Below are positions 3,830 through 23,321 of a stretch of DNA of 64,000 bases, piece by piece. A program made the position numbers and the translations under genes. How positions within the stretch are numbered: position 1 is the first letter of the stretch; every line of letters begins with the position of its first letter. Under the pieces are notes generated by a model. It was not told the DNA's origin. It saw nothing but the letters and a program-made list of their open reading frames with translations, and did no database searches. Source of the stretch: Candidatus Nanoarchaeia archaeon (GTDB lineage Archaea > Nanobdellota > Nanobdellia > Woesearchaeales > ARS49); NCBI GenBank assembly GCA_041489925.1, contig JBGPSD010000003.1, positions 1,993 to 65,992 on the forward strand, in the 5' to 3' direction.

Positions 3830-4696
3830 TCAGCTGGCAGGCGGGGATTCTTCAGGTATTTTCATGTCATACTTCTTGCACTGGCTGCGGATAAACTCAG
3901 GCACATTAACTGTCACGCCTTCTCCTTTCAGTTCAATTGTGCACGGTTCCTTGTGCATATCAAGCAGGAGCGCCTGATCTAAGTTCCCTTTCGGCACATT
4001 GCTTAAATAAATAGCCAAAACAATTCCCTGCTTGAAATCTTCCAATTTGCTCTGCAATTCAGGCACTATTTTTGCCCCAAGTTCTTTTACCGCAACAAGA
4101 TAGTCCATGCTTGGATAGTAGGGTATTTCACGCAGGCGCTGTTTCAGCTGTTCATCAGTTATCTTGCCTTCCTTGCGCTCCTTTTGAACGCGCTGGTATT
4201 CCGACGGCAACATTGCATGGCCAAGATTAAAGTGCGCAGCAACATCAAGGTCTCCTGCGATTACTTCAAGGCTTGAGCTCAGAGTGCTTAAATCATGCGC
4301 TTCCTCTCCAAAAGCCCTGAATGGAAGTTCCTTGTTCAGATTGGCAATATGCAGTATGTCGATATCAATCGTCCCGTTCCGCTTTTCCCAGTGTTTCCCG
4401 CGCGTACTACTATATTCGTTGTAAAACACATAAGCTGCCGTTGGGATTCTGAGCAATGGAGGCATTTCTTCAAATATGGGTATTGTTTTTTGTGTGGGAA
4501 TTCCAAGAGCCATCTGAGTGCGCTGTGCGATATATCCTTTACTGCCAAAACCTGTGCATCCGTCATGTGTATCGCGGACTATCTTGACAAGCACCTGCTG
4601 TCCGATATGAGCGTCAATAAGCTGCTGAAGAGAATCTGTATTCTTTTTAATAAGCTCAATTCGCTCTTCCTGCTCTGCTATAGAAGGCATATCCAT
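3830..4696 (-). CDS. Hypothetical protein
   Basis: 288-aa ORF with GAGGTGGGGG ribosome site and a TTATAAA box upstream on the minus strand. Confidence 0.75.
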   Translation of the reverse strand: MDMPSIAEQEERIELIKKNTDSLQQLIDAHIGQQVLVKIVRDTHDGCTGFGSKGYIAQRTQMALGIPTQKTIPIFEEMPPLLRIPTAAYVFYNEYSSTRGKHWEKRNGTIDIDILHIANLNKELPFRAFGEEAHDLSTLSSSLEVIAGDLDVAAHFNLGHAMLPSEYQRVQKERKEGKITDEQLKQRLREIPYYPSMDYLVAVKELGAKIVPELQSKLEDFKQGIVLAIYLSNVPKGNLDQALLLDMHKEPCTIELKGEGVTVNVPEFIRSQCKKYDMKIPEESPPAS

Positions 4697-4758
4697 GTTT
4701 CCCCCACCTCAAAAGCAGTAATAATACTGGTCTTTATAACGATTTGTGGAGTGGAAAA

Positions 4759-4972
4759 TAGCTTTCGCTAATCGTCAACAAACCCCGGCAGACGCCCGTG
4801 AGGACGCCTGCGCAGGGAAAAAGAGGTGATTGTGATTATCTTCTTCTCGCGCGGTTGATGATGTAAACCCACGCAGGCAGCCGAAGCCACCTGCGCGGGA
4901 AAAAGAGGTGATAGATATTGATTTGAGTATGATTTTTTTAGCTCTCTCCCCTTTGACTACCCCCCTTATACA
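4759..4972 (-). ncRNA. Candidate structured non-coding RNA with two (AUCACCUCUUUUU + GC hairpin) units
   Basis: Lies downstream of a canonical BRE-TATA with no ORF of size. Hairpins CCCGCGCAGGUGGC-UUCG-GCUGCCUGCGUGGG and GCAGGCGUCC-UCAC-GGGCGUCUGC pair through G-U only on the minus strand. Ends in UAGC-GAAA-GCUA-UUUU. Confidence 0.55.
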
Positions 4973-4990
4973 CGCTAATATGCATATTAT

Positions 4991-5013
4991 AGTATATAAA
5001 CCTTTCGGTTTTT
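4991..5013 (-). promoter_or_regulatory. Archaeal BRE-TATA promoter
   Basis: Minus strand reads AAAAACCGAAAGGTTTATATACT (CGAAA BRE followed by TTTATATA). Confidence 0.75.
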
Positions 5014-5014
5014 A

Positions 5015-5035
5015 TGCTACTAGGGAGTAGTAGCA
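5015..5035. promoter_or_regulatory. Perfect inverted repeat, putative operator
   Basis: TGCTACTA-gggag-TAGTAGCA directly abutting the BRE above. Confidence 0.45.
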
Positions 5036-5126
5036 CGATTTGCCGGCAGAGCCCCCTGTTTGCTCTTCCAGCTTGCTTCCTAACCCCCTATAAGCTTATT
5101 AATGGGCTTTCTACTATTTAAATATT

Positions 5127-5696
5127 ATGCACAAGAAGGATTGCATCTGCAAGAAGCCTGCAAGGGTGTTTTTCACTCATTTAAGCCCTCTTTGCAAAGA
5201 GTGTTTTGCCCTATTATTAAGGAGAAGGGCAAGAAAAGCCATCCGTGACTATGGCGAACTCAAGCCAAACCAGAAAGTCTTTATCGACGGTAAAGGCGCG
5301 CTGCCAGTCCTCTTCAAGAGCGCAATAACAGGCCTTCCAGTCAAATACGTTCCAAAAGCAAAGGCAGACAGCGGCCGACTGCGGTCGTCCAGCCTGCGCG
5401 TCGGCTCCGCTGATGCTACGCCGACGGCAGAAATAATCATCACAGGCAAGACAGCTGATGACGAAGCAGTTGAATTTCTTGAACATTTATTCGCAGGTAA
5501 AAAGCAGAAAAAGAGCAAAGAATTGAACATCTTCGAGAACATAACTTCAGCAGAGCTTGAAAAATACTGCGAGCTAAAAAAAATAATCCGAAAAAACCGG
5601 AAGAAATCCGAACTCAGGCAAAAACTTGAAGAACTTGAGCAGCGCTACCCTGGAATTATGTTTGCATTGCAGAAAAGCAGGGAGTCATTCAGCTGA
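5127..5696 (+). CDS. Reduced TtuA/Ncs6(Ctu1)-like protein lacking the PP-loop
   Basis: N-terminal Zn finger C.CKKPA..LCKECF..RRARKAIRDY, TGKTADDEA (family TGHxxDD), LEELEQRYPGI; no SGGKDS and no CxxC Fe-S ligands. Confidence 0.6.
   Translation: MHKKDCICKKPARVFFTHLSPLCKECFALLLRRRARKAIRDYGELKPNQKVFIDGKGALPVLFKSAITGLPVKYVPKAKADSGRLRSSSLRVGSADATPTAEIIITGKTADDEAVEFLEHLFAGKKQKKSKELNIFENITSAELEKYCELKKIIRKNRKKSELRQKLEELEQRYPGIMFALQKSRESFS
5363..5431. repeat. In-frame 63-nt palindromic (REP/MITE-like) insertion flanked by GGCAGA direct repeats
   Basis: GGCAGA at 5363-5368 and 5426-5431. The GC-rich insert contains CGGCCG-actg-CGGTCG and CGTCGGC-N14-GCCGACG; removing it gives KAKAEIIITGK. Confidence 0.6.
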
Positions 5697-6520
5697 TGAA
5701 ACGCATTTTTATCGTCGTAACATTACTATTGCTCGCAGCCTGCGCCAGAAACATCCCGATAGAAACAGGCCCTGAAATTGAGGCATACTTCTGCGAGAAA
5801 GAGAACTGCACAACAATGCTTGCGAACTTAATCAACAACGCAGCTGACGCAAAATGCGCATTATACGACGTTAGCATTCTGGAAATCAGGAATGCATTGA
5901 AAAATATTGAGTGGAAGACAGAAGACGGCAAAAGCCCATTAATGCACAACAAATTCTGCATAATTAACAAGAGCGTTGTCTGGACAGGCTCCTGGAACCC
6001 GACAAAAACAACAAGGGCAAACAATGCAGTAATAATACACTCACCAAGCCTTGCGAGAAATTATCTTGACGAATACGACGAGCTTCCTGGCGGCAGAAGG
6101 CACGTTATCCACCCGAAAGTGAGCTACAACAACCAAATACTTGAGAACTATTTCTGCCCAGAAGACAGGTGCAAGGAGCATGTTTTGGAGCAATTGCGGC
6201 CTGCCAAAAAGGAAATTGTGTTCATGCTCGCAGACCTCACTGACGAGGATATTATCAAACAATTGCAAAGGACAGACATCAAAGTAGAAGGAATAATTGA
6301 CAAGTCTGAAAAAGACGCGATAAAAACCCTGCCATTTGCAAAAACAGGCAATATCCACAGCAAGGTCTTTATTATCGACGGAAACACAGTAATAACCGGC
6401 TCTTACAACCCGACAAGAAACGGCGATGAATACAACGATGAAAACATATTAATCATCCACGATTACGCAATCGCCAAGAAGTTCCTTGACGAATACAGCT
6501 CACTTTCAGCACTCCAGTAG
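5696..6520 (+). CDS. Phospholipase D-family (Nuc-like) lipoprotein, probable secreted nuclease
   Basis: Lipobox LLLAAC; two HKD-type motifs, MHNKFCIIN..TGSWN and IHSKVFIID..TGSYN. Confidence 0.85.
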   Translation: MKRIFIVVTLLLLAACARNIPIETGPEIEAYFCEKENCTTMLANLINNAADAKCALYDVSILEIRNALKNIEWKTEDGKSPLMHNKFCIINKSVVWTGSWNPTKTTRANNAVIIHSPSLARNYLDEYDELPGGRRHVIHPKVSYNNQILENYFCPEDRCKEHVLEQLRPAKKEIVFMLADLTDEDIIKQLQRTDIKVEGIIDKSEKDAIKTLPFAKTGNIHSKVFIIDGNTVITGSYNPTRNGDEYNDENILIIHDYAIAKKFLDEYSSLSALQ

Positions 6521-13845: not shown

Positions 13846-13920
13846 GGGAGTGTAGTATAACTTGGCTTAGTATAGGGGCCTCCAGAGCCTCGGATCGGGG
13901 TTCAAATCCCTGCACTCCCA
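13846..13920 (+). tRNA. tRNA-Trp (CCA), intronless, CCA end not encoded
   Basis: Acceptor stem GGGAGTG/CACTCCC + A; anticodon arm GGGGC-CTCCAGA-GCCTC; T-arm CGGGG-TTCAAAT-CCCTG; TTTAAATA box at about 13812-13819. Confidence 0.93.
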
Positions 13921-13921
13921 C

Positions 13922-21428: not shown

Positions 21429-23321
21429 TTATTTCGCCTTTTTGCCCCAGTACAATGTAACTCCAGGCATTACGCGCCACTCATTGTCCCCTTCCTGAGC
21501 CCAAAGGTAGCCGCCTGTAACTGTTGCGTCAAGCGTAACATTGTCTCCGCTTGCGAGGCGCCAGCCGAATCCGACCTGAGGGCCATAGCGCACGTCATCG
21601 CTCTTGCTTCCCTTGACTTCGCTGTCAAGCGCCTGGTAAACTCCGAGCAGTTCGACAAATGCAGGGTTTCCGCTTATGCTTGTGTGCCACCTGACACCGC
21701 CTTCTGCTGTTATCTTATCCTGCGACATTGAGTCTCCATACTTTTCGTTCATTCCTGAAACGCCGGCTTCTGCTGAAACTTCAGGGCTGAGCATGAGCCT
21801 TCCTTTTGCGCTTGCGCGCCAAGCATCGTAATCGCCGTGGAAGTCTCCTGTTGCGTCTCCCCAGTTCTTTGTCCCTTGTAAGAGCACAAAGTTCTGCTTG
21901 TTTCCTACTCCGAAGTTTTCAGGGTCGTCAAGCTTTCCGTTTGTGAGGCCAAGCTTTCCATTGACAAATGCTCCCTTGTTTCCAAATTCAAGCTTTGAGC
22001 CGCTGTCAAAGTCAACAGTGTAGCTGCGGTCCTCATATCCGCCGTTTCCCTCGACAAATGCAAGAGTTTGCCCTGAAAGCGGCAAATACATGTGTGCTCC
22101 GCCCCAGAACCTTGCTCCTGTTCCGTCAACATTATAGTCTTTGTAGTGCTCGCTGTCAACAAACCCATTGCCGTAAAGGTTCAATCCCCAGTTTCCTGAG
22201 TCAAGTATTGCCTTTGCAGTCGCGCTGTCACCGACAACGTGCGGGTCAGCATATGCCTCGTCGTGCAAAATTGCCTTAAGTGTCAAGTTAACATTTCCGT
22301 CGCCAGAAGTTGCTGGCTGTGTAACAACCGGCTGCGGGCTGTATGGCACAGAAGAGTTCTGGAATGCAATATATTGAGACACCGGAACATATTCTGCTGG
22401 CTTTTCAACAGCCGGCGTTGGAGCTGGCTTTGGTGCAGGAGTTACTGGAGCAACTGCTGGAACCTTTGGAGCTTCAACGGGCGCTGCTTCAGTTGTGCTT
22501 GGCAAAGGAGTAGACATTCCCCTTGCCCTTGCTGTCCTGTACTCTTCACATCCGCTGTCTTCAGGCATTACTGAATCTGATTGGCTTGTTCCTGTGAACG
22601 GCCCTTTTGCAAGGATTACGTCATCCAAGCAGTGCTGGCAGTCATATTCATAACCTGTAGAAGTGTCAATAAACTTTGGAACATCAACAGTTGTTGCAGC
22701 AGGCGCTGGGCCTGTGGCTGGCTTTTCAGCGAAAGGATTCACTTCAGGAACTTTTGTTGGCTGCTGCGGTTTGTCAGCCGGTGATTTTGCAGATTCAGTC
22801 ACTGCTGTTTTAGGCTTGTAATAATTGTAGACTGCTACGCCCGCACCCAGTGCCAAAGCAGTAATAGCCGCAATGTATACCTTGCGAACGCTTCCAGCTG
22901 CCCTGCTTGGAACTGTGTGGAAATAGTCTCCTATCCTGCTGAGCAATCCTTTCTTTTCAGAAGGATTTGTGTCAACAATTTCTGCCGGCTGTGCTTCAAC
23001 TACAGATTCAAGGTTTTCAGGATTTGCAAGGCTGTCTGCGAGTGTTGTGTAGAGATTTTTTGCACGGCTCTTGAGGCTTTCATAGTCAACCTTTGCGCGC
23101 TTTTCCTTGGACATCTTGATGACATTGTCGTAAAGCTTTACCGCAGCAACAAGGTCGTCGTACTTTGCGTTGCTTCCGTTTGCGCGGTGCTCGAGAATTT
23201 GGAGTTTGTTTTCAGTGTTGTAGCTGAGTATTCCCAAATCTTTGATTTCAAGATTGCTATCTGCTGCCTGTTTTATCTCGTCTTTAGAAAAGTTATTTCG
23301 TTGAAAGCGGTAGTTTTCCAT
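21429..23321 (-). CDS. Membrane-tethered protein with Pro-rich linker and C-terminal beta-barrel-like domain
   Basis: N-terminal soluble region, TM VYIAAITALALGAGVAVY, P/A/T-rich linker, then about 290 aa of alternating Gly/aromatic beta-strands ending WRVMPGVTLYW. Confidence 0.7.
   Translation of the reverse strand: MENYRFQRNNFSKDEIKQAADSNLEIKDLGILSYNTENKLQILEHRANGSNAKYDDLVAAVKLYDNVIKMSKEKRAKVDYESLKSRAKNLYTTLADSLANPENLESVVEAQPAEIVDTNPSEKKGLLSRIGDYFHTVPSRAAGSVRKVYIAAITALALGAGVAVYNYYKPKTAVTESAKSPADKPQQPTKVPEVNPFAEKPATGPAPAATTVDVPKFIDTSTGYEYDCQHCLDDVILAKGPFTGTSQSDSVMPEDSGCEEYRTARARGMSTPLPSTTEAAPVEAPKVPAVAPVTPAPKPAPTPAVEKPAEYVPVSQYIAFQNSSVPYSPQPVVTQPATSGDGNVNLTLKAILHDEAYADPHVVGDSATAKAILDSGNWGLNLYGNGFVDSEHYKDYNVDGTGARFWGGAHMYLPLSGQTLAFVEGNGGYEDRSYTVDFDSGSKLEFGNKGAFVNGKLGLTNGKLDDPENFGVGNKQNFVLLQGTKNWGDATGDFHGDYDAWRASAKGRLMLSPEVSAEAGVSGMNEKYGDSMSQDKITAEGGVRWHTSISGNPAFVELLGVYQALDSEVKGSKSDDVRYGPQVGFGWRLASGDNVTLDATVTGGYLWAQEGDNEWRVMPGVTLYWGKKAK

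Follow-up and report, generated by a model that had tools for sequence, protein, structure and literature searches.

The window analysed here is a 64-kb stretch of a 99%-complete archaeal genome (G000); coordinates without a prefix refer to this window, and those with a prefix to contigs of the genome. On its minus strand, two exact copies of the tail AUCACCUCUUUUUCCC lie within 4780-4912, each followed by a GC hairpin and then by GGGUUU. Unit 1 (4865-4912) opens with its tail at 4897..4912, composed of a look-alike of the anti-Shine–Dalgarno (anti-SD) sequence, five uridines (U5), and the CCC that closes the stem. It continues into a hairpin of 14 pairs with a UUCG loop and a following UUU (4865..4899, the hairpin proper at 4868-4899). 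After a spacer of 34 nt comes unit 2 (4780-4830), with its tail at 4815..4830 and a hairpin of 15 pairs with one bulge and a UCAC loop, again followed by UUU (4780..4817, the hairpin proper at 4783-4817). A small UAGC-GAAA-GCUA hairpin (4759..4770) stands 3' of unit 2, and TTAGCG-like sequence recurs within the genus. The 16-mer ATCACCTCTTTTTCCC has two exact matches in the 64-kb window (4897-4912 and 4815-4830), both on the minus strand, while none of 100 shuffles of the window held two or more. The next gene on this strand (3830..4696, 288 aa) has its own TATA box (4732-4739) and a GAGGTGG (4704-4710) before its ATG. A family search with it gave no match, it is kept at this place only in the closest relative, and it lies outside the RNA gene. 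The region between has no credible open reading frame (ORF). Within 4759-4972, ORFs of at least 25 aa are limited to a GTG frame of 40 aa at 4768-4890 on the minus strand and a plus-strand frame of 27 aa, and neither is conserved, since the spacing between units varies among relatives. In all of this, the original prediction of about 210 nt of noncoding RNA with a repeated sequence and two long GC stems, one of them capped by UUCG, ahead of a separately promoted gene, was borne out.

When folded as RNA, the minus strand of 4759-4972 reaches -79.2 kcal/mol (z -4.5), with 0 of 200 shuffles as good, compared with -60.8 kcal/mol (z -1.2) for the plus strand, where 27 of 200 shuffles are as good. 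The G.U pairs in both stems agree with the better folding of the minus strand, the only strand on which the stems had been expected to work. Several known classes were considered and rejected. For a tRNA or tmRNA, ARAGORN finds only a tRNA-Trp in the window, at 13846-13921. A divergent SRP RNA or RNase P RNA is not a candidate either, as both are found above cut-off elsewhere (G000:C13:8833-9106 and 21507-21927). A CRISPR array or solitary repeat does not fit units that share a tail but differ through the stem, are spaced 50-110 nt apart, and stand singly at many loci. By eye, there is no CUGA D box as in a C/D-box RNA, and the stems are perfect, without the pocket of an H/ACA RNA. In a permissive scan of window positions 4000-6000 with Rfam 15, nothing reached a gathering threshold; the best scores were 20.9 bits for YenS (cut-off 80) and 16.6 bits for mir-2300 (cut-off 90).

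The RNA is preceded by a predicted promoter at 4993..5008 on the minus strand, with a BRE (CCGAAAGG) and a TATA box (TTTATATA) approximately 23-26 nt upstream of 4970. This is the leftward BRE-TATA of the original prediction, and the pattern CGAAAG-TTTAWATA precedes the first unit in nearly every related locus; BRE and TATA elements stand ahead of viral copies too. Directly upstream of the BRE lies a palindrome, GCTACTACT-CCC-TAGTAGC (5016..5034, minus strand), which is a possible operator and whose strict pattern has its sole match in the own genome here. Relatives have an ACTACT box before the BRE and an ACTAC...AGTAG box between the TATA and the expected start, and these boxes, too, may be operators. 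Two other places in the genome, G000:C1:30548(-) and C20:4256(+), have strong CGAAAG-TTTATATA promoters with palindromes (GTAGCCACT..AGTGGCTAC and GCTACTAATTAGTAG) placed before the BRE as at the RNA gene, and a shared transcription factor may serve all three. In one RNA run (X1, share 0.06), five short contigs were at least 85% like the locus; strand, start, and end are not readable from these contigs. Three of them cover parts of 4803-4913 and come from relatives, and the flanking genes are covered as well.

Between the promoter and unit 1 lies a leader of approximately 58 nt (4913..4970, minus strand) with purine runs that could pair with the tail of unit 1, namely GGGGGG at 4960-4965 and AAAGGGGAGAGAG at 4942-4954. 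The minimum free energy fold pairs leader positions 4957-4967 with 4903-4914. Among relatives, the leader ranges from a few nucleotides to approximately 85 nt, and many leaders hold GGGGUGG, GAGGUGA, or GGUGAU, each able to pair with the tail. The leader–tail duplex beats at least 95% of shuffles in 23 of the 45 leaders evaluated (mean z -1.9); these 45 come from 66 loci, the other 21 having an unmatched TATA pattern or a leader shorter than 12 nt. The tail is often paired to the leader in full-length folds and is unpaired in folds of the unit. Since several hosts and the viral copies (below) are almost without a leader, the unit appears to be the core of the RNA. Many relatives and viral contigs carry single-unit loci. 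The data thus support the unit, tail plus hairpin, as the probable functional module.

A covariance model (R1) was built from the units of relatives, which in all of these comparisons are kin and not independent samples. Within its own genome, R1 finds the two units only, at 67.7 and 62.4 bits (the latter for unit 2), and the next match reaches 21 bits (C10:25943). That match was rejected as a third member: it is 22 nt of tail-like sequence without a hairpin, in the sense 5' UTR of another gene. With two copies in the genome, the locus is not part of a dispersed DNA repeat. All eight genomes of the genus carry the RNA, and the intergenic DNA around it is recognizable in the seven others, while in most genera of the family the units alone are recognizable, at loci with one or two of them. 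At the level of the order, 133 of 151 sampled genomes have R1 units, one to three and at most four per genome (130 of 148 without the unpublished G135, G144, and G155, all three of which matched). R1 likewise matches 133 of 151 genomes in the phylum-wide sample, among them 27 of 34 from other orders of the class. These counts are lower bounds, since a diverged version (CUCACCUCUUUUCCUG...CAGGAA) occupies the syntenic position in two R1-negative genomes, though not in a third. When Bacteria and Archaea were scanned for the exact pattern with one genome per species, at least 120 loci came up. Among the 80 matches listed, the titles read Woesearchaeota, Nanoarchaeota, Nanoarchaeia, Nanobdellota, "archaeon", or "uncultured Methanosarcinales archaeon", and no bacterial record was found among them; taxon names here are the titles of named records only. 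Consequently, the RNA is no orphan, as it had been called. Judging from these matches, the conservation of the predicted RNA gene extends through a class of archaea with small genomes, and the gene is among the most widely conserved small RNA genes of that class, though no Rfam family covers it.

The stems differ in sequence and keep their pairing, as had been noted for the two in the window. An alignment of 34 units made with MAFFT, not fitted to the model and without the unpublished genome G015, gave a 13-pair consensus stem with RNAalifold and compensatory changes in 10 of the 13 pairs. A second alignment, of 65 R1 hits at 40 loci that represent different families, was fitted to R1, which favours structure; in it, 95.5% of cells are paired and all 13 pairs show compensatory changes. 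None of 500 shuffles of the 65 hits reached this level, and pairing falls to 30-59% when the partner is slid by one to three columns. Cells with G.U far outnumber those with A.C (98 versus 7 in the fitted alignment, 86 versus 5 in the MAFFT alignment), which indicates that the helix is selected on the ATCACC strand. The constraint is uneven. All 61 of 61 units have the tail core ACCUCU unchanged, the common tail variants being confined to positions 1-2 (AACACC, CUCACC), and the tail, the CCC/GGG closure, and the GCA/UGC step of the lower stem are near-fixed, while the upper stem varies freely. On this comparison, the module is a single-stranded 5' tail, AUCACCUCUUUUU, with a predicted hairpin of 12-15 bp closed by CCC/GGG and a short U-tract. 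The locus as a whole is a predicted minus-strand gene for a small structured RNA, with its own promoter and one to four such modules.

The genes around the RNA are also conserved in part. Divergent from it lies a gene for a 189-aa zinc-finger protein with an N-terminal CxC...CxxC finger (5127..5696, plus strand). A profile of 10 homologues matches the NcsA/TtuA tRNA thiolases (6scy) at E 2e-15 and at both ends, but the protein lacks approximately 90 residues of the PP-loop catalytic core, seen as a long gap in the 6scy alignment. The alignment marks this protein as a putative shortened relative of NcsA/TtuA without the central PP-loop core. Among family-level loci, such a gene (170-205 aa) is upstream and divergent in 15 of 27 (14 of 26 when the unpublished L027 is set aside), and among order-level loci in 14 of 40. 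A gene for a Lon-type S16 membrane protease (approximately 500 aa) lies near the RNA in 18 of 27 family-level loci, downstream and convergent in 17 and co-directional in one, and at the level of the order it has this downstream, convergent position in 22 of 40 loci. In six published loci (L012, L015, L017, L019, L020, and L021), the Lon-like ORF runs on through the strand opposite the last unit and ends at the TGA inside GAGGTGAT, giving a basic C-terminus, ...KTLQAPPKRRLRGKKR (...LRGKKR). One stretch of DNA thus serves as RNA hairpin and as coding sequence. In other loci, the Lon-like gene ends just before the unit, with the C-terminus ...RKKR. In the genus of the window, the Lon-like gene has moved away and both units are intact, so the RNA does not depend on this overlap. 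Because the gene downstream varies between lineages, the RNA is not a cis leader.

This arrangement raises an alternative that we consider unlikely, namely that the element acts in cis as a transcription stop, an insulator, or an antisense at the end of the convergent Lon-like gene, and in viruses between terminase and portal. Its working part would then be the T5-hairpin-T3-8 stretch, and the promoter would only drive convergent transcription. The 3' end of the RNA abuts or overlaps the Lon-like stop codon in 13 of 26 family-level loci (counted without L027), five thymidines is a length at which archaeal RNA polymerase terminates, and the same CCTC(C)-T-run is found at the ends of 16S genes in the clade. 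The viral positions given below, after terL in three contigs and after a gene without a visible TATA in the fragment L209, would also suit a stop. However, the genus of the window keeps two perfect units with the Lon-like gene 1 kb away or not nearby, and one locus per genome (two hits in the own genome) is not what a general terminator would show. The ATCACCTC part of the tail is invariant and yet has no role in termination, and the Lon strand reads A-tracts rather than T-tracts. The T-run after each stem is only 3 nt in the window (T3 to T8 in relatives), and a terminator scan of 4600-5200 for a GC hairpin with a T-run of at least five found no site.

Copies of the unit are also carried by viruses. 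A scan of IMG/VR gave 14 loci, seven of which score 33-56 bits with R1. The other seven (L203/L204, L205, L208, L213, and L214/L215) score below 26 bits, with TTCACC or CTCACC tails and poor stems, and were not accepted as members. One unit lies in a 37.9-kb record, rated 98% complete, with genes for terminase, portal, major head, tail, and DNA polymerase. In three related head–tail contigs, the unit follows terL, and the portal gene comes next in the two whose downstream region is covered; in the fragment L209, the unit follows a gene without a visible TATA. The sense of the viral unit is that of all the viral genes, and a TATA-like box would start transcription at or just before the tail. 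Six viral units were folded, and all have a free 13-nt tail and a hairpin closed by CCC/GGG. The exact 16-mer is common to viruses and hosts. One of the viral genomes (G263) encodes QueC-, QueD-, and QueE-like proteins and a GTP cyclohydrolase (L216:14717-17381), proteins of a 7-deazaguanine pathway; its other products include a DNA polymerase of family B and a nuclease of the ERCC4 type.

The shared 16-mer could suggest that the conserved entity is a site in the DNA, bound by a protein or used as an att site common to viruses and hosts, as occurs with tRNA genes, or that GGGAAAAAGAGGTGAT is the ribosome site of small plus-strand ORFs. The motif is a perfect, strong ribosome site on the plus strand, often with an NTG 5 nt after it, and the original prediction had named decayed small genes with such sites as the case that would count against it. 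Yet the plus-strand mini-ORFs have 2 to 21 codons or are absent, and their sequence differs between relatives. The excess of G.U over A.C fixes the strand as that of the RNA, the compensatory changes would not be expected of a DNA site, and viral genes all run in the sense of the RNA. As for an att site in the RNA gene, no integrase family was found at E <=1e-6 among the ORFs tested (35 of 38 in G263 and 20 of 37 in G266), and in the own genome the two adjacent units stand alone, with no third copy to mark an inserted element. We regard this alternative as largely refuted and very improbable.

The tail resembles the 3' end of 16S rRNA closely. AUCACCUC is the 16S 3' end of the own genome (G000:C1:6105-6123), which confirms the match to the archaeal 16S 3' end claimed at the outset. 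The own 16S gene ends with GGATCACCTCC and then TTTT, and the same end with an immediate T-run was found in 30 of 30 sampled relatives (L222-L251; own gene, G000:C1:6105-6140), the run being TTTT or longer in 26 of them. Compared with the gene end plus its T-tract, the tail AUCACCUC-UUUUU agrees at 12 of 13 positions; given the T-run directly after the 16S gene, the tail thus copies the gene end together with the T-tract. The difference is that the tail has CCUCU where 16S has CCUCC, which makes for weaker pairing to GGAGG. One further idea, that the RNA is a deletion derivative of the 16S gene with its promoter, leader, and tail, was rejected, as the approximately 300-nt 16S leader (G000:C1) showed, by eye, no evident similarity or complement.

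A likeness of this kind may be read by a protein rather than by mRNA, and this is the main rival to an action on ribosome sites. The RNA would imitate the 3' terminus of (pre-)16S rRNA (AUCACCUCC-UUUU) as a decoy or ribonucleoprotein, binding a factor that reads the 16S end or U-rich RNA, and its pairing to mRNA would be incidental. The factor might be a Dim2-like protein of the KH type, a 3'-5' exonuclease, the Sm-like protein, or the NcsA/TtuA-like neighbour with its catalytic core stripped away. The agreement at 12 of 13 positions includes the U-tract, and the 30 relatives all show the gene end in question. The U5, the CCC/GGG closure, and the lower stem are invariant in their sequence itself, beyond pairing, and the zinc-finger neighbour, syntenic in the fractions given above, is kin to tRNA thiolases that act on U-rich loops. 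Copies of host RNAs that interact with the host's machinery are common in viruses. On the other side, the h45 hairpin is 5' of this sequence in 16S rRNA and the hairpin of the unit is 3' of it, and in one genome (G141) the zinc-finger gene is retained directly behind the Lon-like gene, without the RNA there or an R1 match anywhere in the genome. A specific candidate was archaeal Nob1, which, in the excerpt of the in vitro work available (PMC3326319), binds and cuts short RNAs with the 16S 3'-end site. Nob1 as the target is disfavoured, as its PIN_6 domain was matched in four archaeal control genomes but not in the own, 99%-complete genome; the Nob1 Zn-ribbon model had no match anywhere, controls included, and so carries no weight. 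The missing PIN_6 match suggests that the 16S 3' end is formed by termination and trimming, and it may be that termination, and not D-site cleavage, makes this end. Overall, we think a protein decoy possible but doubtful.

The other partner of the tail would be the ribosome site. The tail is complementary to GAGGUGAU sites, and GAGGTGA(T) is the common ribosome site in the own genome; the site that the original prediction had cited as an example, before 28757, is indeed a GAGGTGA preceding an ATG. Elsewhere in the own genome, ATCACCTC nearly always occurs as the reverse complement of a real ribosome site. The genome has 141 GGTGA-type sites, and where the tail is predicted to form its best duplexes, the site mostly lies 6-30 nt before a long ORF. 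Specificity beyond this core was sought. Among the Shine–Dalgarno (SD) contexts of the own genome, none match at least 13 nt of the tail and only two match 12 nt. Thirty exact 14-nt complements were inspected in other genomes, of which five are units of the RNA itself, 13 precede unrelated-looking ORFs, and 12 precede none (judged by eye, unclustered). No recurring or conserved mRNA target was found among the SD contexts, duplex sites, and 14-nt complements examined.

Some other sequences in the genome resemble parts of this picture. At G000:C10:25860-26010 (L028), a 22-nt look-alike of the tail (CTATCACCTTTTTTTCCCGCGC), without a hairpin and in the opposite sense, sits inside a structured 5' UTR of approximately 110 nt that belongs to a gene with its own TATA; it is also present in the closest relative, and the UTR has no Rfam match. 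A motif of the form AGAGGCAGC-hairpin-GCUGGUCUCUUUU(U) has four copies (L283-L286; G000:C2:103272(-), C6:33303(+), C6:60405(-), and C11:23922(+)), each standing 8-15 nt ahead of a AAAAAGAGGUG ribosome site and each at a different gene. It has no Rfam match at E <=0.1 and might either terminate the gene before it or be a 5'-UTR element that these genes share. G000:C17:2900-6800 holds a row of genes, every one with a TATATAAA box of its own and a complete GAGGTGAT site, and several of the products start MAEEG or MSEG; the G+C of contig C17 is 0.448, below that of the genome.

Taken from sequence and predicted folds, the RNA probably acts on the start of protein synthesis. Our best reading, which we prefer without holding it to be probable outright, is a 5'-seed anti-SD small RNA (sRNA) that acts in trans and is often masked by its SD-like leader. 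The locus combines a predicted promoter of its own and no conserved ORF with an accessible strand complementary to ribosome sites. The tail would work in trans, like that of a 5'-seed regulatory sRNA: CACCUC(U) would pair with SD sites of the GAGGUG type and compete with the 16S anti-SD, reducing initiation on SD-led mRNAs. The U5 and the hairpin would lend stability and offer a landing site for an Sm-like protein, the gene for which is present (G000:C24:3799-3990). In many species, an SD-like stretch of the leader (GGGGUGG, GGUGAU) would mask the tail until the leader is removed or bound, and tandem units would raise the dose. This anti-SD reading fits the 5'-seed architecture, the common GAGGTGA(T) sites, the self-masking leaders, and the sRNA41 precedent discussed below. 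Action in trans is also suggested by a tail that is single-stranded in folds of the unit and near-invariant, and by the single-unit, near-leaderless versions in hosts and viruses.

Several considerations weigh against the anti-SD reading. Pairing explains nothing beyond the 8-nt anti-SD, and the invariance of the U5, the CCC/GGG closure, and the GCA/UGC step of the lower stem points to a protein or polymerase signal. An anti-SD of 8 nt would touch more than 100 genes, a blunt effect with no obvious benefit. For viruses, a simple shut-off of the host that spares viral genes is not supported, since most genes of the RNA-carrying virus have GGAGG-type ribosome sites, which the tail could also pair with. 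A broader proposal, which we offer tentatively and do not think likely, is that this class-wide look-alike of the 16S 3' terminus acts on the entire translation apparatus. Its free tail would soak up either SD sites or a factor that recognizes the 16S end, and free 30S subunits would bind the SD-like leader. The RNA would then report or buffer the balance between ribosomes and SD-bearing mRNAs; lytic viruses with a copy of their own would tilt that balance.

How the RNA family relates to known systems depends on which feature is compared. The precedent closest to the anti-SD reading is sRNA41 of Methanosarcina mazei, proposed to mask ribosome binding sites in the portion of the account available (PMC5867862). 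As described in that portion, both are archaeal and independently transcribed (here by prediction), with pyrimidine-rich, anti-SD-like single strands and more than one element per RNA. However, sRNA41 as portrayed there is genus-level with defined operon targets, whereas the present family is class-wide, has no specific target found, and is carried by viruses; its tail is letter for letter the 16S end plus a U-tract, unlike sRNA41 so far as that text goes. A sequence relation between them is not expected, and the two are set apart here by description. With the 16S 3' terminus itself, the family has in common AUCACCUC and the U-run that follows, but it has CCUCU in place of CCUCC, a hairpin 3' of the tail instead of the 5' h45, and the form of a free RNA of 50-200 nt. 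Bacterial 5'-seed sRNAs of the Hfq type and those of the C-rich RsaE/RoxS class consist of a seed located at or close to the 5' end, a U-rich stretch, a GC hairpin, and a U-tail, and the seed is anti-SD-like. The archaeal family matches them in architecture and in its anti-SD-like seed; it differs in being archaeal and in a seed far more conserved than typical sRNA seeds, and the role of the Sm-like protein, whose gene is present, is putative. Finally, a fragment of Haloferax Val-tRNA is, in the part of its report available (PMC11009984), a ribosome-targeting archaeal noncoding RNA that binds the 30S subunit. On that partial account, the likeness is a small RNA with a global effect on translation initiation (putative for the family here), and the difference is that the Haloferax fragment derives from a tRNA and binds 30S, whereas the present RNA has a dedicated gene and would bind mRNAs or a protein.

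In the literature covered, which included a term search of one 2026 preprint on intergenic clusters (supplements were outside its scope), this RNA was not described. What is already known is the kind, an sRNA that bears an anti-SD. What is new is how exactly the RNA mimics the 16S end with its U-tract, its conservation throughout the class, its modular build with tandem units, the leader that opposes the tail, and the presence of copies in viruses.

The hosts of this RNA are uncultured archaea with genomes of approximately 1 Mb, and their gene regulation is almost unexplored. The family is missing from Rfam 15, though it is present in most of these archaea, and its covariance model can serve as a marker for genome annotation and for linking viruses to hosts in the class. 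The combination of a 16S-like tail, an opposing SD-like leader, and viral carriage makes control of SD recognition in trans directly testable. With a stretch of 13-16 nt that is as conserved as rRNA, the RNA likely belongs to the core of the RNA biology of these archaea.
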